DNA of 64,000 nt from an uncultured Candidatus Rokubacteria bacterium (GTDB taxonomy: Bacteria; Methylomirabilota; Methylomirabilia; Rokubacteriales; DASRDR01), in NCBI GenBank assembly GCA_963805625.1, contig CAWDVE010000013.1, positions 1 through 64,000 of the forward strand. The letters are read 5' to 3'. Position numbers and translations under genes: made by a program. How positions within the stretch are numbered: position 1 is the first letter of the stretch; each line of letters starts with the position of its first letter. This document shows, in pieces, positions 4,155 through 22,884 of the stretch. A model generated the notes under the pieces. That model ran no database searches, was not told the origin of the DNA, and was given only the letters and a program-made list of their open reading frames with translations.

Positions 4155-4215
4155 CACGTCCAGCAAGCGCGAGTCGGCCGCGGGCGGCCGGTGGCGTCGA
4201 GCCGGATGGGAGGCG

Positions 4216-5217: not shown

Positions 5218-5483
5218 GAAGTCCTCCTGTCGTCCAGCACCCGGAGCGCCGACTCAAGGAACCGCCGGAGTTCGGCGTCGCGCGCCGCCAGCCGGGCGGC
5301 CCGGTCTCGTCGATGGAGCGCGGCCCGGCAGCGCCCGGAGCAGACCCGTTGCCCCTCGCGGGGCGGCGCCCCCTCCGGTTGGAGCGGCCGGCCACAGACC
5401 GGGCACCGCGGGTCCGAGGGTACTACGGGCGGGGCCGGCGTACGTACGCCGCCTGGGCGGCCTGGCGTCCGTCTGGGAACCAT
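5214..5483 (-). CDS. Small zinc-finger protein
   Basis: CPVC...CSGRC four-Cys motif followed by a charged helix; AAGGAG RBS. Confidence 0.7.
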   Translation of the reverse strand: MVPRRTPGRPGGVRTPAPPVVPSDPRCPVCGRPLQPEGAPPREGQRVCSGRCRAALHRRDRAARLAARDAELRRFLESALRVLDDRRTS

Positions 5484-5535
5484 TCTGGGTGATCTCCTTA
5501 CCGGGCCGCGCGCGCCCTGCGGGAGCCGGACGCGG

Positions 5536-5676
5536 TCACGACGGCGACTGCTGGAAGCCGCAGCGCGGGCGCTTCCCCTTCTTCACTTGGGGACCCGTCG
5601 TCGCCGTCGTCACGCTGTTCTTCGGCGGCGTGTAGTACGGGGTCGGGGTCGGTTTGGGATAACTCGGGCCGCCCAT
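5536..5676 (-). CDS. Small Pro/Thr-rich basic hypothetical protein (46 aa)
   Basis: ATG two nt after the stop of the upstream ORF; MGGPSYPKPTPTPYYTPPKNS... Confidence 0.5.
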   Translation of the reverse strand: MGGPSYPKPTPTPYYTPPKNSVTTATTGPQVKKGKRPRCGFQQSPS

Positions 5677-5678
5677 GG

Positions 5679-6413: not shown

Positions 6414-7179
6414 CGGCGACTCCTTCGTCGTCCGCCCCGGGGCTGGACGTCGTGATGGTGATGCCGACGTTCGGCTGGGCGGGGCGTCCGGCGTCCACCT
6501 CGAGGGTGGCGTGCGCGGGCAGTTTCATGTTGATGGCCGACAGGTGATACTGGATGGCTGCCACCGACGCCGGCACCTGGGCCACCATGGATTCGGCGTT
6601 CTCCAGATCCTGGATGATGCGGCCGACCAGACAGGGACACCGCGGGGGGGGCGGCGGGCACGCATGGACGTCCTGCACGGTCAGTGCGGCGATCCGGCCG
6701 GGCAGGGCCGTCAGCATCTGCAGGGCCGAGGTGCCCCGGGCGGTCGCCGCCGTGAACACGCCCCGCACCAGCGCCGTGTGCTTGCGGAGCTCCCGCACGT
6801 CGATCCCTTGGAGCTTCCGCTCCCATTCGACCAGGGCACTGATCCGCCCGTGCGCGCGGGGCTGCTCGTAGCGCTGCACTTCCTCGAGCACGCGGTCACA
6901 GGACGGCTGCAACGCCTCCGCGCGCTGCCGCGCCGCGAGCGCGCGCGGCGGGATCCAGTCCAGGCGGGCCCGCAGCGCGGCCCCCGCCGCGGCGTCGGCG
7001 TCCACCGGCGCCTGCACCCGGGCGCGGAGCTCCACCCACACCGGGTCGACGGGCGACGGCACGATCGGGGGAATCACGACCTTCGGCGGCCGACCGCGAC
7101 CCCGTTTCTTCGGCTCGGGCTCGAGGGCGTCGAGCGCGGCCGCTTGGTCCTCGCGCAGACTCGTGCGGGGGAGCGTCAT
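6406..7179 (-). CDS. Hypothetical protein with AT-hook-like motif
   Basis: KKRGRGRPPK near N-terminus; helical body; AGAGGGG RBS; overlaps the next start. Confidence 0.7.
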   Translation of the reverse strand: MTLPRTSLREDQAAALDALEPEPKKRGRGRPPKVVIPPIVPSPVDPVWVELRARVQAPVDADAAAGAALRARLDWIPPRALAARQRAEALQPSCDRVLEEVQRYEQPRAHGRISALVEWERKLQGIDVRELRKHTALVRGVFTAATARGTSALQMLTALPGRIAALTVQDVHACPPPPPRCPCLVGRIIQDLENAESMVAQVPASVAAIQYHLSAINMKLPAHATLEVDAGRPAQPNVGITITTSSPGADDEGVADA

Positions 7180-7192
7180 TGTGGCCCCTCTC

Positions 7193-7453
7193 TTACTCGC
7201 CATACGCGGCGGCCAGATTCGCGTAGCTAAAACTTTTCCACGACAACTCCCCGGCGTTGCCCCCCTTGGCGTTGCCGGGCTGATTCGCCGTGCTGTTCGC
7301 GGTGTCTCCGGGTTTCGGGTCTTTGACCCAGTACACGCCCGCCGTTGCATCGCTGGTGGCGGTGGGCAGGGCGATGATGACCGACACGCCCGCGTGGCCT
7401 GTCATCACTTTGCGTCTCAGGGTCTCAAGGTCGCTCAAGGCAATCGTGGCCAT
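7193..7453 (-). CDS. Hypothetical protein (86 aa)
   Basis: AAGGAGG RBS; tightly packed in the operon; Gly/Ala/Asn-rich. Confidence 0.75.
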   Translation of the reverse strand: MATIALSDLETLRRKVMTGHAGVSVIIALPTATSDATAGVYWVKDPKPGDTANSTANQPGNAKGGNAGELSWKSFSYANLAAAYGE

Positions 7454-7454
7454 C

Positions 7455-7751
7455 TCAGTCCTCCTTGGGGGTCAGGGCCGCCTCGGTCAACAACGTCATC
7501 CGAGGGGGCGGGGCCGCGCGCAGGGGTTCGGACGCGGGCGGATCCACGGGGACGGGGAGCGGCGCCCCGCCGCGGCGTCGCCGTCGACGCGGGACCGGCG
7601 CCTCGGCCTGATACACGCGCTCCCGGCCGTCCGGGCCATGGCGCCAGCCCACCGCGTGGAAGAGCGTCCCCCGGAGCCGCAGGGGGGTGTCGGTCCCCTC
7701 GCCCGGGAGACGGGCGATCACGCGTGTGAGGTGCTCGTCGTAGTAGATCAC
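7455..7751 (-). CDS. Hypothetical protein
   Basis: GTG start overlapping the upstream TGA (GTGA); poly-Arg stretch. Confidence 0.65.
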   Translation of the reverse strand: MIYYDEHLTRVIARLPGEGTDTPLRLRGTLFHAVGWRHGPDGRERVYQAEAPVPRRRRRRGGAPLPVPVDPPASEPLRAAPPPRMTLLTEAALTPKED

Positions 7752-8137
7752 CGCGCCGCGGCCGCCGTGCGCATCGCCTCCAGGGCCTTGACGCTGGCCG
7801 CGCGCATCGCCTCGCGGTCGGCCGTCGCCTGGCGCAGCTCCTCCGCCACGCTGGCCAATAGCGCCTTCTGTTTGTCGAGGGTGGCCACCGCCGCCTTCGC
7901 CTCCGCCTCCGCCGCGGCGATGGTCCGGTCCGCCTCGCGCCGCTCCCGCGCCGCTTCGTCCGTCGCCGCCCGCACCACCGCGTCCGCCTGCTGCTGGCCC
8001 CGTTGGTACAGCGCGCGCATGTTCTCGATCCGTGCGGGCCACTGCTCGATCTTCGTGAGGATCGGGCGCACCTCCGCGAGGAAGGCCGTCAGCTCGGCGG
8101 CCGCTTGGTCGAGCTCGGTGAACTTCACTTCAGTCAT
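7748..8137 (-). CDS. Coiled-coil hypothetical protein
   Basis: AAGGAG RBS before MTEVKF; Ala/Glu/Arg-rich heptads. Confidence 0.75.
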   Translation of the reverse strand: MTEVKFTELDQAAAELTAFLAEVRPILTKIEQWPARIENMRALYQRGQQQADAVVRAATDEAARERREADRTIAAAEAEAKAAVATLDKQKALLASVAEELRQATADREAMRAASVKALEAMRTAAAAR

Positions 8138-8354
8138 GGTCGTGCGCTCCTTGTGGGTGAAGGGGTGACTGCGGGACGCTTCGGGAGAGCTGGGGGATCG
8201 GAACGGCCCCACCTGGTCAGATGACGAGTCTGAGGCGCTGCGCAGTTTCGGGGTGACGGAGGAGGAGGCCGTTCTGGTGGCCGCTGGCAATCGCAATCGA
8301 CGCGCGCGGGCCCGTCGTCGAGTGCGAGGTCCATGTGAGACACAGGCCGCGGGC

Positions 8355-8441
8355 TCATGATCCGAGCCAATACCAGAAGAGCGTGAGCCAGATGGCGACG
8401 GCGCCCACCCAGGCCGCTGCCGTCCACCACCACGCGCTCAT
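8355..8441 (-). CDS. 28-aa Trp-rich single-pass membrane peptide
   Basis: MSAWWWTAAAWVGAVAIWLTLFWYWLGS; ATGA-coupled to the upstream HTH gene. Confidence 0.5.
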   Translation of the reverse strand: MSAWWWTAAAWVGAVAIWLTLFWYWLGS

Positions 8442-8785
8442 CGAGCCACCTTGAAAGCGGGCGCGAAGAGATGGTCGAGGTCTTGGCGGTCGAAGATGGC
8501 CCGACGACAGCCCGGCCACCGCACGACACGGAGCTCGCCCCGCTCGACCTTGCGCCAGAGCTCCCGCACGCTCACGCCGACGTAGGCCGCCGCATCCTTC
8601 ACGGACAGGCCGCGAGGGAGCACGGTCGCGGCAAAGACAGCGCCCGGACCCGCATCTGGGGCGGGTGTCAGGGGCGAGCGCTGGTCTGGCGAACCAGCGA
8701 CCGCCCCTGCCAGGACCCGGCGGGGCCGCCCGGCCGGCCGACGCAGGCGGGCACTGGCGTCCACCAAGGGGCGCGCCGTGGGCAT
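8438..8785 (-). CDS. Excisionase/AlpA-like HTH DNA-binding protein
   Basis: LSVKDAAAYVGVSVRELWRKVERGEL...FDRQDLD pattern (HTH_17-like). Confidence 0.8.
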   Translation of the reverse strand: MPTARPLVDASARLRRPAGRPRRVLAGAVAGSPDQRSPLTPAPDAGPGAVFAATVLPRGLSVKDAAAYVGVSVRELWRKVERGELRVVRWPGCRRAIFDRQDLDHLFAPAFKVAR

Positions 8786-8979
8786 CACTCGGGCGCCTCC
8801 GGGCGCGGCGCCGGCTTCTCGCTGGACCACACGGGCCCCTCACAGTGCCGCGCGCACCGAGGCGATCGCGCGAGACACCATTGACGAAGCCAGCTCGCAC
8901 ACGCGACCCGCACGACCGGCTCGCCCCGCAGCGCCCGCTTCAACCGCTCGAGCCGCTGGACGTAACTCGTTCGACTCAT
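8785..8979 (-). CDS. Small Cys-containing hypothetical protein
   Basis: 64 aa, coupled at both ends; four Cys plus His. Confidence 0.6.
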   Translation of the reverse strand: MSRTSYVQRLERLKRALRGEPVVRVACASWLRQWCLARSPRCARHCEGPVWSSEKPAPRPEAPE

Positions 8980-9428
8980 CGAAGCACCCGAATGGACCGG
9001 GCCCGCGCCGTCACGATCTTCTCGATCTCGTCGAGCCGCTGGCCGACGTTGGCGTCATGCGCCCGGATCGCGGCCTCGGCAAGCCTAGTCAGCGCGTTCG
9101 CATCCCGCGAGTGGAGCACGCCGCGAAGCACCTCGCCCCCGAGCTCCTCGAGGAACGCCTGGACCTCCGCCACCGTCTTGAGCGCGGGATTCGGCGCGTC
9201 CGGGCGGCGCAGGTTCCGCGCGCTGGATGCGGCCCCCCGAAGGATCGCCCCACGCTTCGCCTCCGTGCTCACCTGGTCCTCGGGCGAGTGGAACCAGCAG
9301 CGGGTCCGATTCGAGGCGATCGTGGTGAACGACCCGCACGGGTGCCCATTCCGGTTCAAGGCCGTGCAGCGCGGGACCGGCTCGACGGAAAGCCTCAAGC
9401 GGCCCGGGACGGGCATAGCAGGAGCCAT
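8976..9428 (-). CDS. Zn-finger protein, possible small-terminase-like
   Basis: RCTALNRNGHPC...RCWFH (HGGxSTG-like C3H finger) plus helical C-terminus; start uncertain. Confidence 0.6.
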   Translation of the reverse strand: MAPAMPVPGRLRLSVEPVPRCTALNRNGHPCGSFTTIASNRTRCWFHSPEDQVSTEAKRGAILRGAASSARNLRRPDAPNPALKTVAEVQAFLEELGGEVLRGVLHSRDANALTRLAEAAIRAHDANVGQRLDEIEKIVTARARSIRVLR

Positions 9429-9450
9429 TCGCGGCTTTTCCCCATCCTCA

Positions 9451-9733
9451 TTGCTCAATGCCCTCTCCCTATAAGGGATGAGCAACGTGAGCAACGACAC
9501 GGAGTCAGGGCCCCCTGGGGCCCTTGACCACCGAGTCTCGAAGTGGACGACGCGCGAACGCTGCTCACCTGAGCAACGTTGAGGATCGCCGCGTCTAGTG
9601 CGGGGTTCCGTGCCTCAGTGGGGTGATGTTGCTCAGGGTGAGCATGATCAGGAGCACGATCGGGTCCGACCCCGGAATGAGATGCGCTGAAACGTTGCGC
9701 AGGGGGGCTGAAAAAAGGGGGGGGTGAGCAACG
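9451..9733. repeat. Cluster of TGAGCAAC(G) repeats in both orientations, putative replication origin
   Basis: Forward copies 9479, 9488, 9570, 9725, partial 9639; reverse copies 9451, 9561, 9628, 9693; directly downstream of the replicase. Confidence 0.75.
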
Positions 9734-9737
9734 TGGT

Positions 9738-11690
9738 TCAGGCCGCATCGTCCCAGTCCTCGTCGGCCGGCCAGGTGGTGAGGTCGACGGTCAGGTGGAC
9801 GTGCTTGCCGTGCCGCACCTCCGTCACCACGGCCTGGGTCTTGTCACGGAGGGGTCCGTAGGGCCACGGCTTCCGGCCCCGGAGCACGTCGAGGGCGCGG
9901 CGATAGGTCGCCTTCGAGATCCCGGCCGCCAAGACCTGCTCCCCGAGGTCGCGCTGGAAGAGGCCCGCCGGCGCGGCCTTCAGGAGGCCCGCGGCGGTCG
10001 CCACGGCCTTCTGCACGCCCGCCTGGATGCCCTGCGCCGCCTCGCTGAAGCGGCCGCCATACACCAAGCGAACCGCGCGTCCGGGCTCGGGCTCCTGGAG
10101 TTCGAACCAAATCGGCGCGTGCCGGGGCCCGATGCGCTGTTTCGAATGCTTGAGCACCACGGCGAACTCGCCGAGGGAGCGGTCCCGCTTGAGATACAGG
10201 AGCGTATCGGCCGCGTTCCGCCAGTCGCCGGCCCCGCGGGCCACGTGCTCATCGCCGAACGCCACGCCGGGCTGGGTCGGGGCCTTCGGGGAATGGCCGA
10301 TCAGGAGGACCGTCGCGCCGTGCGTGCGCGCGAGCGGGAGGATGCGCGTCTTCATGAAGGCGCGCACCTCGGTGTTGTCGTTCTCCCGGGCGAGGCCAGA
10401 GAGGGCAATGGCACTGTCGAGGACGATGAGCACCGGCCGCAGTTGCGCGACGAGGGCGACCACCGCGGCGTAGTCCTCCGCGTCGCTGAGACTCACGCCC
10501 CCGGCATCGACGAACGTGATGGGGAGATCGTCGGGCAACTCGAGGCCCGCCTTGAGCAATTGACAGCGCCGCCGCTCCTCGGCGAGCGCATTCTCCCCGG
10601 CGAGGTAGAGCACCGGGCCGGATTGGACCGGCGCCTCGTCCGCGCCCGGCTCCGCGAAGGCGGGGCGACCCGCGGCGGCCATGCAGGCGAGGTACGCGGC
10701 GAGCCAACTCTTGAGACTTTCGCCCGCCGCCGACATGAGCGCCACGGCCGCGACGGAGATCCAGCCCGGCCAGAAGTAGGCGACGGGCTCGATGTCGCCG
10801 CGGGTGAGCTCCGCCCAGCTGACCACCTTCAACCGGGATGCGAGGCGCTCGGCGGCCGGGGGGGCGGGTTCTGGCGTGTAGCGCCCCGCACTCGCGGCGA
10901 TCTGCCGGAGCTCGACGGCCTCGAGCGGCGGCCGGCACCGGCCGGCGTTGACCAAGGTGAGGGCGCCGAGAATCTCCTCGGTCGTCATCCCGCGGCGCCG
11001 CATGGACCCGGCCAGCGAGAACAGGAGCTGATTCCGCCGGCCCTCGCCGATGATCTCGTCGACCACCGGGGCGTGGCCCGTGCCATTCCCGTTGGTCGGC
11101 TGAAGCCGCGCCAAGAGCCACGCCGGGGCGTCCGCGAGCGGCACGTCGGCGGGATCATGCAGGAGGTCCCACGCGTAGGCCCGGCCGTTCGCGTGCCGGC
11201 TCGGTGCCGCGACAATCTGCCCGCCGTCGCCGCGCACGTCGAGCCCCGGCGCGAGGGTCGCCTCGCCCTGCTGGTTCCCGATGCGCCAGCCCGGGTGCCG
11301 GAACAGCACGTGCTCGCCGCCGCCGCCCGTCACCTGGCGTGGCGTCCGTGGAAGCGGGCCGTGCGTGGCCTCCAGGCGCGCCAGCGCCTCGTCGCCGCCA
11401 TGCCGGGGGTCCACGTCCAGCGCGAAGACGCCGGAGGCAGCGCCCGTCGCGATCCCCACGTTGCTCTCGGGCCAGCGCGTGAACCACTCCCGGATCTCGG
11501 TCTCGATCACGGAGGCCCGCGTCGGCCACTCCCGGAGGCGCGGGTGCTTCCCGGGGTGTTCACACGCCGCGCCGCTCGGGCAACTGCAGCCGCCAGGGCG
11601 CGGCCCGTACAGCGGCACGACCCGCCACCCGCGCCGGGCATAGGTCAGAGCCGCCTCCACGCGCTGTGCATGGGTCCCCGTGGTGCTCAC
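9738..11690 (-). CDS. Bifunctional DNA primase/polymerase fused to PriCT and AAA_25/RepA-type helicase
   Basis: GKHP, NVGIATG, ALDVDPRHGG, TGGGGEH, GLDVRGDGG Prim-Pol motifs; GRRNQLLF PriCT; Walker A-like AAGESLKS, Walker B LIVLDS, LIGHSPK; GTG start coupled to the upstream ORF. Confidence 0.93.
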   Translation of the reverse strand: MSTTGTHAQRVEAALTYARRGWRVVPLYGPRPGGCSCPSGAACEHPGKHPRLREWPTRASVIETEIREWFTRWPESNVGIATGAASGVFALDVDPRHGGDEALARLEATHGPLPRTPRQVTGGGGEHVLFRHPGWRIGNQQGEATLAPGLDVRGDGGQIVAAPSRHANGRAYAWDLLHDPADVPLADAPAWLLARLQPTNGNGTGHAPVVDEIIGEGRRNQLLFSLAGSMRRRGMTTEEILGALTLVNAGRCRPPLEAVELRQIAASAGRYTPEPAPPAAERLASRLKVVSWAELTRGDIEPVAYFWPGWISVAAVALMSAAGESLKSWLAAYLACMAAAGRPAFAEPGADEAPVQSGPVLYLAGENALAEERRRCQLLKAGLELPDDLPITFVDAGGVSLSDAEDYAAVVALVAQLRPVLIVLDSAIALSGLARENDNTEVRAFMKTRILPLARTHGATVLLIGHSPKAPTQPGVAFGDEHVARGAGDWRNAADTLLYLKRDRSLGEFAVVLKHSKQRIGPRHAPIWFELQEPEPGRAVRLVYGGRFSEAAQGIQAGVQKAVATAAGLLKAAPAGLFQRDLGEQVLAAGISKATYRRALDVLRGRKPWPYGPLRDKTQAVVTEVRHGKHVHLTVDLTTWPADEDWDDAA

Positions 11691-11860
11691 GCGGCTCTCC
11701 GAAGGGCGCGCGGCCCCTGGCGCTCCAGCGCCCGCTCCAGCGCGACGAGCCGCCGGTCGATCTCCAAAGAGGCCTGCCGGGAGAAGGGCCTCGAGACGGC
11801 GCGCTCCGCCAGTCGAAGCTGAAGGCGGCGGACGCGGAAGCCGATCGATGGCCGGCGCAT
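11687..11860 (-). CDS. 57-aa basic hypothetical protein (not in ORF track)
   Basis: MRRPSIGFRVRRLQLRLAERAVSRPFSRQASLEIDRRLVALERALERQGPRALRRAA; starts 2 nt after the xis stop and its TGA overlaps the replicase GTG. Confidence 0.6.
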   Translation of the reverse strand: MRRPSIGFRVRRLQLRLAERAVSRPFSRQASLEIDRRLVALERALERQGPRALRRAA

Positions 11861-11862
11861 CG

Positions 11863-12069
11863 CTACGCCTCGACAACCTCGCGCGATTCCGCGGTGGCTA
11901 CCACGTAGCGCTCGATGAATGTGCGGAGGTCCTCGTCACGGAACAGCAGGCGTCGGCCAAGCCGGACATGGCCGAGCCGCCCGGCCGCGACCTCCTGGCG
12001 CACGCGACTCTCGCTGACTCGGAGCGCTCCCGCAGCCTCGCCAAGATCCCGGAGAAGCGGCTCACTCAT
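11863..12069 (-). CDS. Excisionase-family HTH protein
   Basis: EAAGALRVSESRVRQEVAAGRLGHVRLGRRLLFRDEDLRTFIE; AAGGAGG RBS. Confidence 0.88.
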   Translation of the reverse strand: MSEPLLRDLGEAAGALRVSESRVRQEVAAGRLGHVRLGRRLLFRDEDLRTFIERYVVATAESREVVEA

Positions 12070-12116
12070 GTGGTCCTCCTTGGCGTCATGCATCAGGTAG
12101 CGTCATTAGGCGCGAC

Positions 12117-12148
12117 TTGACACCCAAAGTGAACCGAAAGACACTTTG
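12117..12148 (+). promoter_or_regulatory. Sigma70-like promoter with inverted-repeat operator
   Basis: TTGACA(12117)-17 nt-GACACT; CAAAGTG-N10-CACTTTG at 12125-12148; ATG 7 nt after the -10. Confidence 0.65.
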
Positions 12149-12151
12149 TAC

Positions 12152-12784
12152 ATGGCACGGCGTGCTTTGAAGCCTCAAGAGAAGCGCTTCCCCCCGAAGG
12201 AGGCTCAGGACTGGACATGGGGGCGCCGGCCGCGACAAGAGGTTGATTGGGAGATTTGGCAGGACGAGGCTGGAGGCAAATGGGACGGGCTCTCCGCCAT
12301 TCGTGAGACGGCAGAGGCCGGGCCGCCCTCCGTCTTCTCGCCGGAGAACCGCTACGCGACGCTCGAGATCCTGCGGCAGTACCTCAGCCTCTGGCAGGTG
12401 GAGCAGGATGAACGCGAGGCTGGGATCCGCCTCTCAGCCGATCGGGTCGCATTCGGCCGAACGTGGGCGCGGATCGTCACGCTCGTGCGTGAGAAGGGCC
12501 TCCATCGCGCCCGGCAGCGATACGACCGCCTTCCGCGAAATAGTCCGGCCGATAGACACGCTCGGTTATTGGCCCTGACCTATCTCACGGCGCCGGGAGG
12601 CCTTGGGCGACTGAAGCGCTGCGCTGCCTGTGGCGAGTGGTTCGTCGACTACAGCCGGAACCGCTCAGGAAAGCGCTGTTCCCAAGACACCTGGCGCTGG
12701 TGGAACCGTGAACGCCGCCGGAAGGCGGGTCAGCCGAGCCAGCGGAAGGGGATCAGCCCCGCCGAGCCCGCGCGATTTACTTAG
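12152..12784 (+). CDS. Putative regulator with CGNR-like zinc finger
   Basis: RLKRCAACGEWFVDYSRNRSGKRCS; divergent from the xis-rep operon. Confidence 0.7.
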   Translation: MARRALKPQEKRFPPKEAQDWTWGRRPRQEVDWEIWQDEAGGKWDGLSAIRETAEAGPPSVFSPENRYATLEILRQYLSLWQVEQDEREAGIRLSADRVAFGRTWARIVTLVREKGLHRARQRYDRLPRNSPADRHARLLALTYLTAPGGLGRLKRCAACGEWFVDYSRNRSGKRCSQDTWRWWNRERRRKAGQPSQRKGISPAEPARFT

Positions 12785-12923
12785 ACTGGCGCTTCTTTCG
12801 CGACACTACCGTAGAGGCGAGTGTTCGACTTGACTGCAAGTCAGGCGCGAACAGGGGCTTGAGGGTGGAGGCGGAAACGTAGCAGTAGTTTGCGGACCTG
12901 AAGTCTACCGGACGCACCTGCAC
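12777..12923 (-). CDS. Possible 48-aa peptide downstream of the SDH protease
   Basis: GTG 4 nt after the protease stop with GAGGA; basic C-terminus RKKRQSK. Confidence 0.35.
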   Translation of the reverse strand: MQVRPVDFRSANYCYVSASTLKPLFAPDLQSSRTLASTVVSRKKRQSK

Positions 12924-12927
12924 GTCC

Positions 12928-13983
12928 TCAAGGTGTACCGGTCGCGGCCGAGGCGGGCGCACCACCTGACGGGGCATTCGGACCTCCTCGCTGGATTGAC
13001 TTCCAGGTAATGGCCACGGTTTCTCCCGCTCCATCAACCACGCCGTACCCGATCCGACGAAGCCGAGCGGTGTCGACAAAATAGGCTTGCACGACGACGG
13101 TTCCGGGCTTTCCTGATATGACTGCCTGTTTGTTGACCACGCGAGATTCACCTTCATAGTACCTCACAAGCCCTTCCATCCTCTGCTTCAATTCGGGTCC
13201 AGGCTCGGTCACAGGCAATCCTAGATCATTGCGGGCGTCTGATCGAGAGATCGGGAAGGAATGAGAGAAGTACTTCCCAGCTAATTGTTCAACGATCTGC
13301 TCTACTTGTTCCGGAGGCAACTGCGACCGCCGAGTACCAAGCACCTTCCGTGTGATTAGTTTGGACAGTTCCGCCGACTGTTCGATCGCGCCAAGGGAGA
13401 GTGGATGGACCTGGCGGAATAGCTCACTGATGACTGCAGCCATGTCACTGCCTTGGTGAGACTCCCCCAGATGTCGCCTTACGAAGTCCACACAGTGCTT
13501 GAGGTCCTCCACCGACATTGGTGTCGGGTTCCCGTCCTTGTCCTTCGGAAGCAGCGGATGCCGTCGTGTAGGGTCAACGGAACTCAAAGTGGCGAGTTCG
13601 GTCATGATAAGGGAGTCACCCGCTAGGGCAATGTGCGTCGCGCCACTATGGGCGACATCCGGAACGAGAATCTTGAGTTCGTCGGTGTACTCCCTCAGCA
13701 AGGACACGAGCTTCCACGGAACCTCTGTGATCCCGCCTGTGCTCCTCAAGAAAAGGCCAAGAACCTTCTGGTTCCCGATGGACTCGAGCAGCTCCGAGAA
13801 TGGACGATAGAGTTCAGGGCGCAGCATGCCTCCTTCGCCTATGTACAACGCGATGATGGGAGCGCCCAAGGCCTGTTCCAAGTCATCGATCAGCTTCCAG
13901 TTCTCCGGAACCGGAACGTTCTGTAGAGCCTGCTGGATCGGAACCTGTTGTTGACCTTGGCCGGGAGGAACAGGCTTGGCCAC
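12928..13983 (-). CDS. SDH-family ClpP-like serine protease
   Basis: STGG, AHSGATHIAL (Ser), SSVDP (Asp), SHSFPI (His); AAGGAG RBS; lower GC than flanks. Confidence 0.85.
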   Translation of the reverse strand: MAKPVPPGQGQQQVPIQQALQNVPVPENWKLIDDLEQALGAPIIALYIGEGGMLRPELYRPFSELLESIGNQKVLGLFLRSTGGITEVPWKLVSLLREYTDELKILVPDVAHSGATHIALAGDSLIMTELATLSSVDPTRRHPLLPKDKDGNPTPMSVEDLKHCVDFVRRHLGESHQGSDMAAVISELFRQVHPLSLGAIEQSAELSKLITRKVLGTRRSQLPPEQVEQIVEQLAGKYFSHSFPISRSDARNDLGLPVTEPGPELKQRMEGLVRYYEGESRVVNKQAVISGKPGTVVVQAYFVDTARLRRIGYGVVDGAGETVAITWKSIQRGGPNAPSGGAPASAATGTP

Positions 13984-14053
13984 CGGCGTGCGGCTCCTTC
14001 CTGACAGAAGGGGTCAGAAGGCGTCAGTTGCGTTAGAGGGGGCACATTCTAGC

Positions 14054-14120
14054 GTCTTTGCTCCGTCTTTGCTACATCGGCTGGCACAACTGGGCATTCC
14101 GGGGCACCCGTGGGCACACC
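14054..14120. repeat. att-arm repeats: GTCTTTGCT x2 and four 10-bp-phased GGCA boxes
   Basis: GTCTTTGCTCC/GTCTTTGCTAC at 14054-14075; ctggcacaac tgggcattcc ggggcacccg tgggcacacc at 14081-14120. Confidence 0.6.
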
Positions 14121-14175
14121 AGAGACGCGAACGGGCGGCCCAGGGAGTGGCCCGGAACCGCCCGTCACAACGATG

Positions 14176-14197
14176 AAAAGCCGCATCCCATGCGGCT
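14176..14197 (-). terminator. Intrinsic terminator downstream of tRNA-Val
   Basis: Minus strand AGCCGCA-TGGGA-TGCGGCT followed by TTT. Confidence 0.7.
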
Positions 14198-14204
14198 CCG
14201 CGAG

Positions 14205-14280
14205 TGGTGGACGATGCAGGACTTGAACCTGCGACCCCCGGCATGTGAGGCCGGTGCTCTGCCAACTGAGCTAATCGTCC
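14205..14280 (-). tRNA. tRNA-Val (anticodon CAC)
   Basis: 76 nt GGACGAT...ATCGTCCACCA; D-arm AGCTCAGTTGGCAGAGC, anticodon stem CCGGC/GCCGG with loop CTCACAT, T-loop GGTTCAAGTCC, encoded CCA. Confidence 0.97.
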
Positions 14281-14289
14281 GTGCCTGCA

Positions 14290-14318
14290 ATCCTAGCTAC
14301 TTGCCGGACGGCCGTCAA
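14290..14318 (-). promoter_or_regulatory. Sigma70 promoter of tRNA-Val
   Basis: TTGACG-17 nt-TAGGAT ending 9 nt before the tRNA. Confidence 0.8.
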
Positions 14319-15421
14319 CGGCCGCGGTCTGGACTTTGCCCGATACTTGGCCCGTGAGCCGCCGCGCCACGTCCTGGAGGTCTCGCCCGGATTGACGATG
14401 TGCTAGCGGTCGAACACGGCCCGCGCCTTGTGGCCGGTGACGGTCATAGCAACCCGCTCGGCCACGCCCGCGTTGACCATGTTTCGGACCGCCGTTCGCC
14501 GGAAGTCGTGCCGCAGCCGGCCGGGACAGCCGGCCTGCTTGACCGCCAGTGCCCATGCCTTCCGGAAGTCCCGGCGCCGGGTCCCCTTCCACGGCCCCCG
14601 CAGATGCGGGAACAGGAACGGGATACACGCGGCCGAGCGTGCGCTCGAGCACTCGGACGCGATCTACTTGGGCGGCCAGCTGGGCCTGGACGTCGGCCGG
14701 GAGGTAGACGACCCGCCCGTCGTCGTTCCTCGTGGTGGTGCCGGGATCCAGCCGCAGGGTCCCCGCCTCGAGGTCGAGGTGTCGGCGCTCGAGGGTGAGC
14801 CCTTCGCTCTGCATCCGCCAGCCGAACGTGTACGCTACCCCCCACGGACACCTGGAGATCCGGCGGGAGATGCTTTCTGACTGCGGCGAACTGCCCGAGT
14901 TCGAAGAAGCCTTGGCGCGGGCCGTTCTCCTTCAGCTTCCGGATCATTAGGGAAAGCACTTTGCGCGTCTCGTAGCCGAGCCGGAGCATCCGGATCAAGA
15001 CCGCGAGCTCGCGGTTGATCGTGCCGTTTGCGCCCCCTCCCCATGCCGGTGCGCGACATAGGCCGTGGCCTCGGGCTGCCCGAGGCGCGATGGCCCGCAA
15101 AGAACGCCTTGAGGTGGGCGAAGCGACCGTCCGCCTCCTCGAGGTCCCGGCATTCGGTCGTCTCGCAATGCCCCCGGAGATCCGCCGCAAGCTCCTCGTA
15201 GCGCACGCGATCCGCTCGAGACAGCCCGGGCTGCCCGGTCGCGACGCGGCCCTCGCGCCCCTTGAGGAAGCGCTGCGCTTCGGTCCGACTGTCGGTGTCG
15301 GCCGGCCATTCACGTAGTACTTCACCCACCAGATCCGCGACTCGATCAGCACGCCGGCCGCCTTGGCGGACTTGTACGTCTGCCCGGTCGGCGGATACTT
15401 GGGACGCCACACGCTTCCCAT
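14293..15421 (-). pseudogene. Degraded tyrosine integrase (multiple frameshifts)
   Basis: Fragments in three frames: WWVKYYVNG, GTINRELAVL...GFFE, LRLDPGTT...[25 protein letters not shown]; homologous to integrase 32-1213. Confidence 0.9.
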
Positions 15422-15506
15422 TGCCGGCGGCCGATGCAGATGAGCCCCAGGCGCTGGCGGAGCGCGGCGATCCGGCGTCCGACCTTGGCCGCGCCGGTCG
15501 ACATGG

Positions 15507-15863
15507 CTAGGCGGTGCCCCTGCCTGAACCGGGGCGCTCTCGCCGCACCACGACAAAGCCCAATGCCCGCCAGGCGGCCGGCATGCGTCGACGTCGCTCG
15601 GCCCGTCGTCGGTCAGGCAACCGCGCCTCAGGCCGTTGGCGGCGCTCCAGTTGTCGCTGGTCCAGGAACACCGGCTCGGGTTCAGGGTCTCGGCGGTCTT
15701 GGACACGCCGCTCCACGGGGACCGATGCAGCGGGACGACGCCGATCACCCGCCCGGCGATCCCAGAGGAGTTCCACGTCGTCGCCGAGCGTCTGCGCCAA
15801 CGTCGCCTGGAAGTGTTGGAACACCCGGTTGGCGTCGCGCCGGACGACGATGAGCGTCGTCAT
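15507..15863 (-). CDS. Small protein with tandem DRR/ERR repeats
   Basis: LIVVRRD...WDRRAGDRRR...ERRVQDRR...ERRQR...DRRRAERRRR...LGFVVVR. Confidence 0.75.
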   Translation of the reverse strand: MTTLIVVRRDANRVFQHFQATLAQTLGDDVELLWDRRAGDRRRPAASVPVERRVQDRRDPEPEPVFLDQRQLERRQRPEARLPDRRRAERRRRMPAAWRALGFVVVRRERPGSGRGTA

Positions 15864-15865
15864 CG

Positions 15866-16535
15866 CTACTGGATCAACTCGTCCGCCCGCGCCAGCACTG
15901 ACGGCGGGATCGTCAGACCGAGGGCCTTGGCGGTCTTGAGATTAATGACGAGCTCCACCTTCGTGGGTTGCTCGAGCCGCGGCCTCGGTCTCCCGCAGAA
16001 CCTCCGCGGCGCCGGGGTCAGTCGGATTCCAGACAACGGCCACAAGGGCAATATTGGGGACGGCCTCTTTGTGGAGCTGTAACCGTTTACCGCTCAGCTC
16101 GGGGTGCATCAAGGTCAATCCTGTGACATTTCCGCCGGGCCGGGAGAGACTGCCCACCACCCCGGCCTTCACCGGGTCGCCGGCGATGGCCATCACGACG
16201 GGAATGATTTGGGTGGCATGCGCGGCGGCCAGCGCCGCCGCGTTGCTCTCGGTGACGATGACGTCGACCTTGAGACGCACCAGTTCGGCCGCCAGGGCCG
16301 AGAGTTTGTCGGTCCTTCCTGCCGCGAACCGAAACTCGAGGGCGATGTTTCGGCCCTCAACATAGCCGTGCTCCCGAAGGCCCTGCCGGAACGTCTCAGC
16401 GAGCGGCGTCGAGGATGCGACCAGAAGCGTGAGCACTCCGATCCGGGCGACCTTCGCCGGCGGCTGCGCCTCCGCGAGAAGCGGCACGGCGAGGAGGGCT
16501 AGGGCAAGGCCGAGCGTGAGCCCCCGAACCCTCAT
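15866..16535 (-). pseudogene. ABC substrate-binding protein with internal deletion/frameshift
   Basis: N-terminal ~190 aa paralogous to 4216-5217, joined out of frame to the terminal [36 protein letters not shown]. Confidence 0.85.
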
Positions 16536-16751
16536 GGGCGTGCTCCTTTCGTTCGGCGGCTGAGGGCCGTCCCGCCGACCCTACCAAGCCCCCGACCCGG
16601 ACGCCAGACGGGCCTGGACGCGGGTAACGGCAAGAGCGGGCGGGCCGAGATAGCCATCGCCGGCGCGACGCCGCGTCGTCCACATGCCGACGTGTCGCGC
16701 GTTCTGGCAGCCCAGCCTGAGAAAAACGACCCCGGCCGTCCGATTTCCACC

Positions 16752-16767
16752 TGGCACTGGCCCTGCA
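16752..16767 (+). promoter_or_regulatory. Candidate sigma54 promoter
   Basis: TGGCACTGGCCCTGCA, GG-N10-GC. Confidence 0.55.
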
Positions 16768-16871
16768 CCCCGGCAATGGGGCGTCCTATGGCAGCTCAGC
16801 ACTCGATGAGGCTCTCCAAATGCCCGGTGTGCGCAATCGCACGCCGGCTCAACACGCCGGCTCAAAGGGAC

Positions 16872-17393
16872 ATGGCCATGTTGTACTACGTCGTAACTGA
16901 AGGCCGCGCGAACATCCTCGACCGCTTAAACCTCCGTAATCGGTCGACATATGGGCTGGACTGGATGGTGTTCTACGCGAGTACCGCACGCGACTCCGTC
17001 CGGCAGTGGACGCTGTATAAGGCCGGGACGCATCCGCGGCAAGCCGACCTTGAGGCTGAGGCCGCGGGGTACCGAGCGGCCACCGCCGGCTATGCGCCCG
17101 CGTGGGAGGCTGAGCGCGAGGTGATTGCGGTCGATGCCGCTGACCGGCTCCACGCCGTGGAGACCGAGCAGGGCGTCCTGAGCGATGCGCAGGCCGATCT
17201 GGATGCTCCACGCAAAGGCCTGCGGCGAATCGCCGCGGCTGCCCCGGACCCACTCCGACCACGGCGGCGCTCATCCTCGGCGTCACCTCGACCTAAGCAA
17301 ACCGGGCGCCGGCGGACGAAGGCTAAGGCGGACACGCGGGGCCCGACGAAGAACCGGGCGCCGGCGACGAGACGACGCCGCAAGCGCCGCTAG
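16872..17393 (+). CDS. Hypothetical protein with very basic C-terminal tail
   Basis: AAGGGA RBS before MAMLYYVV; a 13-bp tandem repeat upstream (16840-16865) argues against earlier starts. Confidence 0.55.
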   Translation: MAMLYYVVTEGRANILDRLNLRNRSTYGLDWMVFYASTARDSVRQWTLYKAGTHPRQADLEAEAAGYRAATAGYAPAWEAEREVIAVDAADRLHAVETEQGVLSDAQADLDAPRKGLRRIAAAAPDPLRPRRRSSSASPRPKQTGRRRTKAKADTRGPTKNRAPATRRRRKRR

Positions 17394-17583
17394 CCGCGCG
17401 TCGCACGAGAGTGACGCCATCCTGCCGGAGCCATCACGGGCCGGTTCTCACCCTGAGATGGGCTCCACGGGCGTCCGGGCTCGTCACAGGCCCCTTCCCT
17501 GCCCGGGTCGGTTAAGATCGGTGAAGATTCAAGGCGCACCTGAGCTCCTCACACCCGTGGCAACCAATGGGTACTCCCTGTTC

Positions 17584-17599
17584 TGGCACCGACGATGCT
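17584..17599 (+). promoter_or_regulatory. Candidate sigma54 promoter
   Basis: TGGCACCGACGATGCT, GG-N10-GC; predicted +1 about 17610. Confidence 0.6.
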
Positions 17600-17611
17600 T
17601 CACCCCGATTC

Positions 17612-17714
17612 GGGGGCTACGGGGCGCGTAGTGCCACGTCTCGGAACAAGACGGCCGCGACGGTGACGACGCAGCCAAACTGATCTGGGAACTGTGAGGC
17701 GCTCCGTAGCTTCC
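17612..17714 (+). ncRNA. Candidate rod-shaped hairpin RNA (SRP 4.5S-like architecture)
   Basis: 16-bp terminal stem GGGGGCTACGGGGCGC/GCGCTCCGTAGCTTCC with G-U pairs, inner helices CACG/TGTG, TCTCGGA/TCTGGGA, GGC/GCC, GCG/CGC, apical CG-GTGA-CG. Confidence 0.55.
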
Positions 17715-18000
17715 TCGATCGTGCCCGACAAGGCCGCCGTGGCAGCCGACGCCCCGAATCGATTGGGAGGTGTTCCAGTAGCGACGGGGGGTCGCTTTGT
17801 GATGCCGGGGTTCGGTTCTCCGAGTCACGCAACGGTAGATAAACACCCGTTGTGGGTACCCGAGGGGCCGGGCCTCCAGTGTGCCCAAGAATGTGCCCGC
17901 GAGCGTTCCGGCCGCCCAATTCCATTCCATGCTCCTATCACTACGCCCAGCCCGCCATACGGTTTGCGACGGGATGAGAGCGGAGCACTCGCCGGGGACC

Positions 18001-18127
18001 GGCCGGAGACCACCGCGAAGAGCCTCGACGACCGCCGGATTCTCACGCAGCTCACGCGCTCTGACCTGGAGGAGACCCCCCTCCCCCGGACGCCAGACGA
18101 GTCCGGCCCTTGTGGTATGCCCCGGCC
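18001..18127 (-). ncRNA. Candidate rod-shaped hairpin RNA
   Basis: Nested helices GGCCGGGG/CTCCGGCC, ACCAC/GTGGT, AAGGGCC/GGCTCTT, TCTGGC/GTCAGA, GGGGGAG/CTCCTCC; G-U pairs favour the minus strand. Confidence 0.5.
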
Positions 18128-18139
18128 ATACATTTTCGG

Positions 18140-18155
18140 AGCAGCTGCCGTGCCA
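18140..18155 (-). promoter_or_regulatory. Candidate sigma54 promoter
   Basis: TGGCACGGCAGCTGCT, GG-N10-GC; predicted +1 about 18129. Confidence 0.6.
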
Positions 18156-18260
18156 CGTTGGGCAACGCGATGCACACCCGTCGACTCCCGCGCGTGACAC
18201 GACGCCCGGCGACGGCTGTCTGCGTGGGCACTTCGGCGAGCCTACCCGGCCACCCCGTCC

Positions 18261-18276
18261 TGGCCCAACACTTGCT
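18261..18276 (+). promoter_or_regulatory. Candidate sigma54 promoter
   Basis: TGGCCCAACACTTGCT, GG-N10-GC with consensus TTGCT. Confidence 0.65.
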
Positions 18277-18319
18277 CCGCCTATCCCGGGGTCTGTAGAC
18301 CCGGGCGGGAGGTGCGGCA

Positions 18320-18415
18320 ATGTGGACGCGCCAGTGCCCCAATTGCGGCCAGCGGCTTACCAAGATCGACCCGATGGAAACCGTCTACTGCCTGTGCGGC
18401 TGGGTCTGGTCCTAA
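18320..18415 (+). CDS. 31-aa zinc-ribbon microprotein (not in ORF track)
   Basis: MWTRQCPNCGQRLTKIDPMETVYCLCGWVWS; GGGAGG RBS at 18307-18312. Confidence 0.7.
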   Translation: MWTRQCPNCGQRLTKIDPMETVYCLCGWVWS

Positions 18416-19008
18416 CGACGCGCCCCGCCGCCACTGCGTCCCGAACCCGCATGGCGGCGTCGCTCTGTGCCTCGCGCACGCCGTCGCCCAATAAGCGCTG
18501 CTCGAATTGGATCGGTTGCTCACGATCTTCCTCGAGACGGTCCTGTCGCCCATGGAGCGCGCAACGGGCCGCGGCGACGTGATCAGGGCGGCACGGGATA
18601 CAGTGCGCGCGGGACTCGGCCGACCGCCAGCTCCGGCCTATGCCAAGGAGGCGGTCGGCTGTGCCGTGTCCGCCAGTGGCCTGATCTTCTTCCCGACCGG
18701 ATGGCAGCTCCTCTGGGCGCCGGCGTGGTGGGCCGGTGTGGCGGGCGATCGCACGGGGCCAGCAGCTCGACGGAAACGTCTTCGGGCTGTAGGCCGGCCG
18801 TCACACCGCCTGCCCACGCCGCCGGGCCCGATAGGCACGCTGGCGGGTTCCCGTCCGAGCCGGCGCCAGTCTCAGAGTAACGGAAGATCGTCTCGCGTCC
18901 CCGCGATTCATTCGGGTCCCTGGAGCCGGACTCGCGAACCGGTATCTCCACAAGGTCCCCGGTTCCGTTACGCGTCCGCGCGTTCGGGGGACCCGCCAGG
19001 ACCTCGCC

Positions 19009-19302
19009 CTAACGTGAGCCTTTGATCAGTCGACGGTACTCCGCCTCCGGGAACGCCTTGAGGGTTGTGGTTCTCACGTTGCCCTGGGCCGCGAGGGCCA
19101 GAGCGTACTTGGCCGCCGTCTCGTCGTCTTTGACCTCCATCACGGCGACGAAATCGTACGTCCCCATCGTGAGGTAGAAGCCGGTCATCTTCCCGCCGAT
19201 CTTGGTCAGCGCCGCCTGGGCGGCGTCGAGGCGCCGCGGTGACTCCTGGATCGTTCGCCGGCCCTGATCGGTGAAGGTCCCCAGGATGACATATGTGAGC
19301 AC
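19009..19302 (-). CDS. GYD-domain protein
   Basis: FTDQG...FYLTMGTYDFVAVME...GNVRTTTLKAF; GAGGAGG RBS. Confidence 0.9.
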   Translation of the reverse strand: MLTYVILGTFTDQGRRTIQESPRRLDAAQAALTKIGGKMTGFYLTMGTYDFVAVMEVKDDETAAKYALALAAQGNVRTTTLKAFPEAEYRRLIKGSR

Positions 19303-19368
19303 GGGATCCTCCTCTCGGAATCGAGACAGTCGGATGGCCGGCAGAACGGGCGCCGACTCCGTGCGGTC

Positions 19369-20085
19369 CTACACGACAATGCGCGACGCGAGGAGCACGC
19401 GACCGGTCACCGAAAACGACTGCATCTCGACCACGTGCCGCGTGCGATTCGGCGGGATGGCCTCATGCACCACGGTGAGCTCCAGGCGAGCTGGCGGCTC
19501 GGTGAACCGCGGTATCTCCACGCGCAACATCGTGCCGCACTGGGAGCATCGGCCCGACACCGGACCAATGGCCTCGTAGACCTCGAAGCCGTCCCCTCGA
19601 TGGGCCAGACGAAAGTCGGGCACTTGCGTCGGGAGCCTGTCCGCACTCCGCCGCCCGACGCCGCGGCGCTCGGTCCCCGGTGCGCTGCCGCCGCTCCGGC
19701 GCCGCTGCCCGCGACGGCGGTCGACCACTACCTGGACCCAGGCTGACCCCACGAAGCTTCGCCGGAGAGCCGCGAACACTTCTGGCCGGTCCGCTCGCAC
19801 GACGATCGTCCATCGCGGACGCTCGGGAGTGACGTGCCGGTCCGCCGAGGCGTCCGCCAAGCGCCGCTCCCGCACGGACTCGCTTCGCCCCTGCCAGAAG
19901 AGGACACAGAGGGAGTGCCAGGGATTCTCACCGACGACCGAATCCACCTCCGGCTCGTCGCACCCGTAGCATCTATCCTCACCGCCCGACCTCGGGTGAG
20001 GCGTGTCAGTCTGGGTCGCCGGACTGAGCATGCCGGCTCTCAGCTTCTCGACGATGCGCTTCTCACGGGCGCGCTGAGAGATCAC
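19369..20085 (-). CDS. Hypothetical protein: Zn-finger + DRR-repeat + CxxC domains
   Basis: CYGC...HSLC; IVVRADR...VVVDRRRGQRRR...ERR; CSQCG; start uncertain. Confidence 0.65.
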   Translation of the reverse strand: MISQRAREKRIVEKLRAGMLSPATQTDTPHPRSGGEDRCYGCDEPEVDSVVGENPWHSLCVLFWQGRSESVRERRLADASADRHVTPERPRWTIVVRADRPEVFAALRRSFVGSAWVQVVVDRRRGQRRRSGGSAPGTERRGVGRRSADRLPTQVPDFRLAHRGDGFEVYEAIGPVSGRCSQCGTMLRVEIPRFTEPPARLELTVVHEAIPPNRTRHVVEMQSFSVTGRVLLASRIVV

Positions 20086-22194: not shown

Positions 22195-22884
22195 TCAGAT
22201 GAGTCCGCGCTGCGCCAGGCTCACGTGACTGCCGCGGCCGATGATGACGTGGTCGTGGACGCGCAGCCCAAGGAGGCGGGCGCCCTCCACGAGCTGCCGC
22301 GTGAGGTGAACGTCCTCCTTGGAGGGCGTCGGGTCTCCGGATGGGTGGTTGTGGACGAGGATGAGGTGGGCGGTGGCTTCGAGGATCGCCGTCCGGAAAA
22401 CCTCGCGCGGGTGCACGATCGAGGCCGACAAGCTGCCCTCTGACACCTGGACGTCGCGCAGCAGCCCGTTCTGGCTGTCGAGCAGCGCCACGCGGAAAAC
22501 TTCCTTCTTCTTTCCCTCGAGCCCGGGACCGAAGTAGCCGGCCACCTCCTCCGGGCTCGACAGGCGCACCCGCCCGCCGTTTGGTCGCGCGCGGAGGCGC
22601 CGGGACAGCTCGATCGCCGCGCCCAGCCGAACGGCCTTCGCGATACCGAGCCCGCCCACCCACGCGAGCTCCTGCACCTCGCGATCGGCCACCGCCGCGA
22701 TGGAACCGAAGGTGGCGAGCAGGGCTTGCGCCTGGTCGAGCGCCGTCTGCCCGGGAACACCGCCCCCGAGCAGGAGCGCGAGACACTCGGAGTCACTGAG
22801 GGCATCGGCCCCCTTCGTGAGAAACCGCTCGCGCGGTCGGTCCTCGGCTGGCCACTCGCGAATCGGGGGACGCTGGCCGTTCAC
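22195..22884 (-). CDS. radC: RadC family JAB-domain protein
   Basis: RPRERF...LSDSECLALLL; VHPREVF, HNHPSGDPTPSKED, DHVII. Confidence 0.95.
   Translation of the reverse strand: MNGQRPPIREWPAEDRPRERFLTKGADALSDSECLALLLGGGVPGQTALDQAQALLATFGSIAAVADREVQELAWVGGLGIAKAVRLGAAIELSRRLRARPNGGRVRLSSPEEVAGYFGPGLEGKKKEVFRVALLDSQNGLLRDVQVSEGSLSASIVHPREVFRTAILEATAHLILVHNHPSGDPTPSKEDVHLTRQLVEGARLLGLRVHDHVIIGRGSHVSLAQRGLI

Follow-up and report, generated by a model that had tools for sequence, protein, structure and literature searches.

Several sigma54-type promoter units, one preceding a genus-restricted family of structured RNA, in a gene-poor island of a Rokubacteria genome

Do four sigma54 (RpoN)-type promoter motifs, gathered within about 1.5 kb of DNA almost devoid of genes, belong to one regulon of small regulators invisible to gene callers? 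A first-pass annotation proposed this for an island of the window studied here, i.e. the whole stretch of 64,000 nucleotides (nt) that begins contig CAWDVE010000013.1 (our C13) of assembly GCA_963805625.1, from an uncultured Candidatus Rokubacteria bacterium whose genome is 7.27 Mb long, 69% G+C and 99.9% complete. The four motifs, of the form TGGC-N9-GC (GG-N10-GC), are where that annotation placed them: 16752+, 17584+, 18155- and 18261+, hereafter P1, P2, P3 and P4. What our comparisons suggest is nevertheless different: rather than one regulon, the island is best described as a mosaic that comprises at least two sigma54-type units, and the RNA predicted at P2 is a new sigma54-linked family, restricted to one genus among the genomes searched. 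The motifs and their proposed products are the following, each score being given with its rank in the genome.

16752 to 16767, plus strand: P1, sigma54 -24/-12 motif, 16.5 bits (rank 93), predicted transcription start (+1) near 16778
16878 to 17393, plus strand: gene of a 171-amino-acid (aa) protein, with a leader of about 100 nt, its start set by homologs
17584 to 17599, plus strand: P2, sigma54 -24/-12 motif, 16.0 bits (rank 107), predicted +1 near 17610; the motif stands before all nine members of the RNA family
17610 to 17716, plus strand: structured non-coding RNA of about 105 nt, predicted as a rod-like hairpin (closing stem of 15-16 bp, middle helix of 6 bp, apical stem-loop), 3' end approximate
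18140 to 18155, minus strand: P3, sigma54-like motif, 15.6 bits (rank 121), with neither comparative support nor a supported product
18261 to 18276, plus strand: P4, sigma54 -24/-12 motif, 12.3 bits (rank 347), predicted +1 near 18287
18320 to 18415, plus strand: putative 31-aa CxxC/CxC zinc-ribbon microprotein, GGGAGG 7 nt upstream

As quoted in PMC4253122, the sigma54 consensus is TGGCAC-N5-TTGCW-like, with GG at -24 and GC at -12, and P1 to P4 all display it with the fixed spacing. Scores come from a matrix trained on 100 non-coding sites, none of them from window positions 15000 to 20000, genes and non-coding DNA being separated by crude in-house calls. The density put forward by the first-pass annotation depends on how sites are counted: the loose GG-N10-GC pattern, found 10,922 times in the genome, stays at chance (four observed for 2.6 expected per 1.72 kb), whereas the matrix-scored sites form the densest sigma54 cluster of the genome. 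No other non-coding stretch of 1.6 kb holds four sites that reach 10 bits (two hold three), for a Poisson chance of about 0.02 genome-wide, and three of the four motifs fit TGGCAC-N6-TGC, which occurs 114 times in the genome and is expected 0.027 times in 1.72 kb. The motif excess is specific to the spacer: non-coding sites number 151 against 41-54 in shifted-spacer controls at 12 bits and 100 against 15-22 at 14 bits, which puts the expected false share at about one third and one fifth respectively, and TGGCAY-N6-TGCW has 96 genome sites against 17-44 at seven other spacers. Besides, rpoN is present, together with 48 matches to the activator domain PF00158 (41 at E<1e-10, some of them split or duplicated), so that the genome would encode roughly 35-40 sigma54 activators. 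Because of rpoN, these activator domains and the spacer-specific excess, we consider that sigma54 is widely used by this genome. At the locus, the motif is retained in homologous regions for P2 (nine of nine RNA members), for P4 (four of four homologs) and for P1 (soil strains X5 and X6). Thus the idea of sigma54-type promoters ahead of small products keeps comparative support for P1, P2 and P4, which can be regarded as three well-supported promoter sequences with predicted starts, but not for P3.

Other sigma54 sites deserve mention for themselves. The strongest of the window, with 22.1 bits, is at 22914 on the minus strand, immediately ahead of a radC-like gene (22195-22884, named by eye). 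On C19:315000-394000 about 15 strict sites, mostly dyad-free, stand ahead of CBS, Usp-like, Hsp20-like and HPF-like genes (names given by eye from translations). At C17:772862, minus strand, a sigma54 leader with a good fold (z-score -3.8, 14 long-range pairs) precedes a 456-aa gene.

Does P2 really precede a structured RNA? Of the two long hairpins that had been proposed, the one at P2 is real: it begins at the predicted +1 to +3 and is more stable than all of 200 shuffled sequences (111 nt, z -3.8, 0/200). Among 117 promoter-proximal non-coding 110-mers of the genome it ranks first for folding, its paralog third, and the homolog of genome G014 folds alike (z -7.4). The covariance searches that the first-pass annotation called for recovered a family of nine members. 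A model of the two founder sequences (window and G014), promoter excluded, found four more members in 150 genomes of the order; with six members the model brought in three others, one of them a second copy in the own genome (C10:244196-244309); the nine-member model found no other in 21 family and 150 phylum genomes. The named public records holding members are labelled Candidatus Rokubacteria in three cases and Methylomirabilota in one. All seven members found by models devoid of promoter have a -24/-12 site of 14.5-17.2 bits lying 28-38 nt upstream, while none of the weak model matches used as controls (0/8 and 0/16) exceeds 5.3 bits, for a background of 0.001-0.002 per 41 positions; the G014 founder carries a CGGCAC promoter variant (4.3 bits). 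The orientation of the RNA and its distance to the promoter are fixed in nine of nine members, and the closing stem starts at about +1 to +12.

The fold is conserved with compensatory changes and the RNA has no conserved reading frame, as expected of a structured non-coding RNA. In the nine-sequence alignment 90.3% of 207 cells are paired, against 37-52% in slid controls, and 10 of 23 pairs are changed on both sides, against 4.0 in shuffles (0/500 as high); the middle helix is supported on six members. In the closing stem 12 cells are G-U and one is A-C, which favours the promoter's strand, and a strain change (17623 G>A) converts a G-U pair to A-U. A GA/GA pair beside a 4-nt bulge is seen at the middle helix of six of the nine members, with patterns fitted by eye; it resembles a kink-turn, though not a canonical one, and is treated as a lead only.

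The searches beyond the models give a consistent picture of a narrow family. No Rfam family matches the RNA (none at E<=1 on eight member loci; the window gave only three chance matches, E 4.7-8.2). BLAST over 251 genomes returned one true homolog; the match in G176 lies in a coding-like stretch. An exact 19-nt pattern gave 65 matches in metagenome contigs, all of them by chance and none with flanking similarity; a promoter-plus-stem pattern gave 22 genome loci, four true and 18 non-members, without any new member, and none in viral contigs. No terminator was detected by a scan after the window RNA, and a second hairpin at 17720-17810 is not significant (z -0.9). Close to the second RNA copy of the genome, at C10:237574-237705 (L153:1461-1592), a sigma54-led open reading frame (ORF) of 43 aa resembles a peptide precursor.

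How is P1 related to P2? P1, whose motif undergoes a consensus-keeping change in soil strains X5 and X6 (TGGCAC to TGGCAT), is preceded by a large dyad.

16666 to 16697, unstranded: upstream activator dyad CGnCA-N3-TGTCG-N6-CGACA-N3-TGnCG, 55-86 nt upstream of P1, 18.6 bits

When the matrix is built from 20 sites that lie beyond the window, 15 bits are reached by 0.5% of 600 random non-coding 270-mers; the genome has 68 sites at or above this score, 26 of which adjoin a sigma54 site. With at most two mismatches and a gap of 8, the dyad precedes 12 of 117 promoters; seven other gaps give 0-3, and controls 0.3%. All 15 of the 15 genus genomes contain its exact pattern, and none the reversed one. 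Seven of the nine RNA members possess it, scoring 16.4-24.9 bits. Dyad sites are dense, together with sigma54 sites, at C17:619-730 kb, a region partly duplicated on C26. The genes near dyads are of the gas vesicle, hemerythrin, BON/PRC, DUF1328, isoamylase (glycogen), superoxide dismutase-like, topoisomerase IB and CBS types, 62 hand-chosen ORFs of the 157 called in the dyad cluster having been scanned. A set of the gas-vesicle, hemerythrin, BON and glycogen type is a general-stress gene set. The sharing of the dyad thus suggests a stress regulon run by sigma54, to which P1 would belong by its dyad. The densest dyad cluster has at its centre the genes of a histidine kinase and of a REC-AAA-HTH protein (C17:644120-646962; HTH, helix-turn-helix); the latter is, by its position, the best candidate for the bacterial enhancer-binding protein (bEBP) that would bind the dyad. 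The half-dyad may resemble NorR sites; a literature search gave nothing on this.

The protein predicted behind P1 was described as an orphan invisible to gene callers; it is neither, being already called as P0001 and belonging to a family of 68 clusters (its own and 67 others; 40 representatives at 50% identity). Its start is placed at 16878 because the homologs begin at M[LQR]YY. It comprises a beta/alpha domain of about 70 aa, a coiled coil and a 48-aa tail with 21 K/R and 2 D/E; some representatives of the family are lone domains of 70-85 aa, and one is fused to an HTH. The very basic tail suggests that the protein could bind nucleic acid. The domain is modelled with a predicted local distance difference test score (pLDDT) of 85 and a predicted template modelling score (pTM) of 0.72, and had no fold match among 48,161 chains (best Z 2.2), which does not prove a new fold; the full-length model matched coiled coils only. 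No Pfam, NCBIfam or PHROG family and no Atlas match was found for the protein, nor any confirmed locus in genome or viral contigs, promoters upstream of homologs being seen in close strains only. Among 251 phylum genomes a single one has it intact and G008 has a fragment, so that it is not an obligatory partner of the RNA.

P4 precedes the sequence of the microprotein, for which the first-pass annotation was right about both the small ORF and its ribosome site, GGGAGG. The homologs of P4 score 13.0 bits in G014, 18.7 in G008, 11.8 in G001 and, in the own paralog on C11, 10.1; their spacer varies, and the C11 paralog precedes a different ORF. The microprotein is kept, with ribosome site and stop, in three of 14 other genus genomes (77-94% identical; the G001 copy has ATA as start). 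The cysteines C6, C9, C24 and C26 are invariant in four of four copies and in six loci read of a family that we call f10, so that both knuckles are conserved. On the other side, no zinc-ribbon match exceeds the curated cut-off (best 16.1 bits vs 27 in Pfam, and 16.7 vs 63), and the four copies differ by few codon changes, with no clear sign of purifying selection (5, 3 and 7 variable columns by position). In f10 the ribbon is the C-terminus of a coiled-coil protein of about 65 aa, and in five of the six loci read, one unpublished genome being left out, a sigma54 site of 19 bits precedes the match by about 207 nt; it is missing from the locus that scores closest. Three weak matches in another family, f2, turned out to be other things. 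At the f10 loci L217, L219, L220, L222 and L225 a second conserved small CxxC protein (MYEIRCIFC...) follows in a sigma54-led pair. In G008 and G001 (L004, L005) the minus strand ahead of the microprotein carries a similar small Cys/Trp-containing frame, divergent with respect to the P4 module.

The region upstream of P4 is conserved and differs from that of P1.

18146 to 18164, unstranded: TGCC-N11-GGCA dyad, candidate enhancer of P4 only, 97-115 nt upstream of P4, unscored and read by eye from the alignment

This dyad is exact in G000 and in the C11 paralog, has one mismatch in G014 and G001 and three in G008. P4 and its microprotein likely answer to an activator other than that of P1.

There remains P3, which overlaps this same TGCC-N11-GGCA dyad. 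In none of the three homologs scored is it retained (1.8, 1.6 and -3.9 bits; G001 was compared by alignment only), and in C11 and G014 the TGG and TGC found at its place are one base further apart. The long hairpin attributed to it dissolves on folding, the predicted transcript being unstructured (z +0.31 over 236 nt, and -0.33 to +0.92 at 11 lengths of 50-250 nt). This transcript would cross a decayed promoter motif and then reach a block that some strains lack; a direct repeat is found on the other side of the block.

18075 to 18100, minus strand: decayed sigma70-like motif, CTGGCG kept and TAGGGT lost, intact in homologous P4 modules
17917 to 18028, unstranded: 112-nt block, 101 nt downstream of the P3 +1, gone from strains X4, X5 and X6 (joint 17916-18029)
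17880 to 17898, plus strand: TGTGCCC-N5-TGTGCCC direct repeat, five copies in the genome, one of them about 700 nt from an integrase-like match on C10

P3 is likely incidental, although a recent gain is conceivable. The direct repeat, likely an integrase arm-type site, may mark the junction between a P1-P2 and a P3-P4 unit. As for the idea of a single regulon, P1 and most of the RNA promoters share one dyad, the sequence conserved ahead of P4 is of another kind, and P3 and P4 have no such dyad: no shared enhancer of P1 type was found between them, the best dyad scores there being -5.7 and -7.5 bits.

Taken as a whole, the explanation that we favour, with about even chances of being right, is that of a mosaic in which P1 and P2 belong to the stress regulon, the RNA of P2 binds a protein, P4 obeys a separate activator and P3 is incidental. 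One enhancer-binding activator would switch on P1 and P2 under general stress or starvation; P2 would be transcribed into a stable rod-shaped RNA of about 105 nt, protected by its paired 5' and 3' ends, which would titrate a protein rather than pair with mRNA. In the window, P2 might depend on the dyad of P1, 918 nt upstream, or receive transcription running on from P1; otherwise its activity would be weak. For the RNA, the most probable mode of action is the binding of a putative protein partner. A stable rod with a conserved closing helix is best suited to this role, which is also that of GlmY under sigma54. Binding is preferred to pairing because no Hfq, ProQ, CsrA (PF02599) or Jag_N match was found in the 99.9% complete genome, because the longest internal unpaired runs are short (5-9 nt) and differ among members, without a conserved single-stranded seed, and because downstream genes also differ from one member to the other.

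Several observations weigh against this explanation. The RNA is accessory: its nine members occur in six of the 15 genus genomes searched and in none outside, when the dyad is present in all 15. The seven dyads of RNA members are not independent evidence, as the dyad was first noticed upstream of such members and the site of one belongs to the training set. The P2 of the window has no local dyad (best -4.2 bits), nor has the RNA copy of G011 (6.0 bits). Since soil strains X4 and X5 carry other sequence immediately ahead of P2, a strain segment of 116 nt standing in place of 17409-17562, the window may have lost a local dyad. The covariation test overstates, the structure being drawn from the same alignment and the members being kin, and for two members the fold over 125 nt is hardly more stable than that of shuffled sequences (z -0.7 and -1.9). 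The single RNA-labelled run, X17, gives a contig from 17563 that includes the P2 promoter and may be DNA; for this reason its contigs (16868-17408, 17563-17807, 18952-19188) were not used as expression evidence. The 15.6 bits of P3 are rare by chance. The word "stress" is drawn from Pfam names and from their likeness to general-stress gene sets. Lastly, four or five RNA members sit just before a same-strand gene, and in seven of nine an ATG or GTG in frame immediately precedes the 3' arm, which would fit a leader.

The hairpin could accordingly be a portable 5' leader of sigma54 transcripts, controlling the next gene by means of a ribosome site or short upstream ORF concealed in its 3' arm, the hairpin of the window being then a leftover without gene. 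That it begins at +1, that the in-frame start lies one or two codons before CGCTCC in the seven members, that two members precede cation-transporter frames, and that a short ORF leaving the 3' arm stops at, or runs into, the beginning of a response-regulator gene in two members, all speak for it. But no gene follows in the window or in G014a, the next gene in G006 has its own -24/-12 motif, and the short ORFs (9 to >100 codons) have no similarity past the stem, with a frame broken in two of nine, so that we hold a leader to be unlikely, if worth keeping in mind. A base-pairing small RNA (sRNA) acting in trans without Hfq, perhaps after a processing that frees the C/U-rich 3' arm for ribosome-binding sites, appears decidedly doubtful: the GCUCC and CCCUC runs of this arm do complement purine-rich ribosome sites, and Pxr works in a host without hfq (PMC5684412), but these runs are buried in the most stable helix, no single-stranded seed is conserved, and a scan for 13-mer complements gave merely scattered matches on both strands.

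That the hairpin is the relic of a small mobile element, either a miniature inverted-repeat transposable element (MITE) or a terminator-derived inverted repeat, travelling with the promoter without any RNA function, would account for a patchy and genus-limited distribution in varied and decayed neighbourhoods, for the plain terminator of nearly identical stem sequence in G039, and for the position of the island beside integrase remnants and a tRNA. It is made very improbable by the fixed orientation and promoter distance, the compensatory changes and the one-strand G-U bias; moreover the genome holds two copies only, not the many dispersed ones of a MITE. The flanks vary from member to member. 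Even less can be expected of the original proposal that all four promoters are active in one regulon and that a single enhancer, in the 105-bp gap, serves both P3 and P4. All four certainly exceed 12 bits in the densest cluster of the genome, the order of the parts is retained in soil strains, and divergent sigma54 pairs around one dyad exist elsewhere in the genome (e.g. C19:210255/210389); against this, no dyad of P1 type lies near P3 and P4, P3 is not retained in homologs, its product is unstructured and partly gone in strains, and the RNA, the microprotein and the basic protein occupy separate places in other genomes.

Returning to the protein-binding RNA, known systems offer several points of comparison. 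GlmY, the enterobacterial sigma54-dependent decoy sRNA for RapZ, is alike in having a sigma54 promoter under a two-component bEBP and, as proposed here, in acting by protein binding (PMC7073468). It differs in that the RNA here has no Rfam match and no GlmZ-like partner was seen, so that an identity with GlmY/GlmZ was discarded for want of a family match. The RNA here is one rod, GlmY several stem-loops. A RapZ homolog is encoded in the own rpoN operon; its C-terminus is devoid of most of the basic residues that bind RNA in E. coli. Pxr of Myxococcus (PMC5684412), NrsZ of Pseudomonas (PMC4253122) and CrcZ are also intergenic RNAs behind a -24/-12 promoter with an upstream enhancer region, and the host of Pxr lacks hfq as here; Pxr differs by its three stem-loops and NrsZ by its processing into short repeats. 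None of the three has sequence or Rfam similarity to the RNA here, which is confined to one genus among the genomes searched.

6S RNA and the small signal recognition particle (SRP) RNA are rods with paired 5' and 3' ends as well, the latter also of similar length. The 6S model (RF00013; about 187 nt, central bubble) matches C17:454986 and weakly C19:315529-315600, not the RNA locus, where no large central bubble is predicted; the small SRP RNA model (RF00169) has its single match at C21:394134, and none at the RNA locus at E<=10. A Csr/Rsm decoy was rejected, with no PF02599 match in the host and GGA motifs mostly paired. So was a Y RNA: a Ro60/Rsr gene usually adjoins Y RNA, and no such gene (TROVE, PF05731) is found in the host.

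The microprotein compares with the one-domain zinc-finger microproteins of CPxCG type (e.g. Brz; PMC2253796), tiny and with a CPNCG knuckle and a second Cys pair; the one here has CxC-G-W as second knuckle, is bacterial and sigma54-linked, and all its Pfam zinc-ribbon matches are under the cut-off. At the scale of the genome, the sigma54 regulome of Desulfovibrio vulgaris, another phylum, is alike with about 37 bEBPs, many small dyad-defined regulons and four non-coding RNAs (PMC4641369); its motif tables may bear on our dyad.

The surroundings of the island are those of a gene-poor stretch, with tRNA-Val (14205-14280) and integrase fragments on one side and core genes from about 20350 on the other, containing a truncated ATP-binding cassette (ABC) substrate-binding gene and a GYD gene.

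16578 to 16607, minus strand: sigma70-like promoter motif CTGGCG-N17/18-TAGGGT, preceding the truncated ABC substrate-binding gene 15942-16535 (Pfam PF04392)

This motif, of sigma70 type judging from its shape, has 18 exact copies in the genome (the one above and 17 others), several of them preceding ABC substrate-binding or HTH genes, and is probably a promoter that spread together with these gene families. Beside tRNA-Val, window positions 32-14200 are occupied by a satellite-like integrative element, with an integrase (32-1363, minus), a Prim-Pol/PriCT/AAA_25 protein (9738-11876, minus), an SDH-type protease (12928-13983, minus) and a zf-CGNR-like gene. Contig C25 duplicates window 14204-15840 exactly, and two cobalamin riboswitches lie on the minus strand of the window, at 38866-39076 and 43593-43782.

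Sigma54-dependent small RNAs are already known elsewhere; what is added here is a new RNA family, a new activator motif and two small protein families. Our search of the open literature found no relevant paper on sigma54, RpoN, small RNA or stress in Rokubacteria or Methylomirabilota. A far-reaching version of our explanation would have Rokubacteria run their general stress response through sigma54 and one activator, with a new class of rod-shaped decoy RNA as a 6S-like brake on the transcription or translation machinery, made by the sigma54 system and acting on it, and a basic histone-like protein whose N-terminal domain would have a new fold; we regard it as improbable in this complete form. 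The reach of the findings has its bounds, the RNA being genus-restricted and patchy and its expression predicted only. Within them, there is now for an abundant uncultured soil lineage an RNA family whose starts are predicted, an activator motif present throughout the genus together with a candidate for its regulator, and two families of small proteins. Since the host seems devoid of Hfq, ProQ and CsrA, the partner of the RNA could be a new RNA-binding protein. General stress gene sets are elsewhere under SigB, RpoS or EcfG; a stress-type gene set under sigma54, if true, would be of interest for understanding dormancy in soil bacteria.

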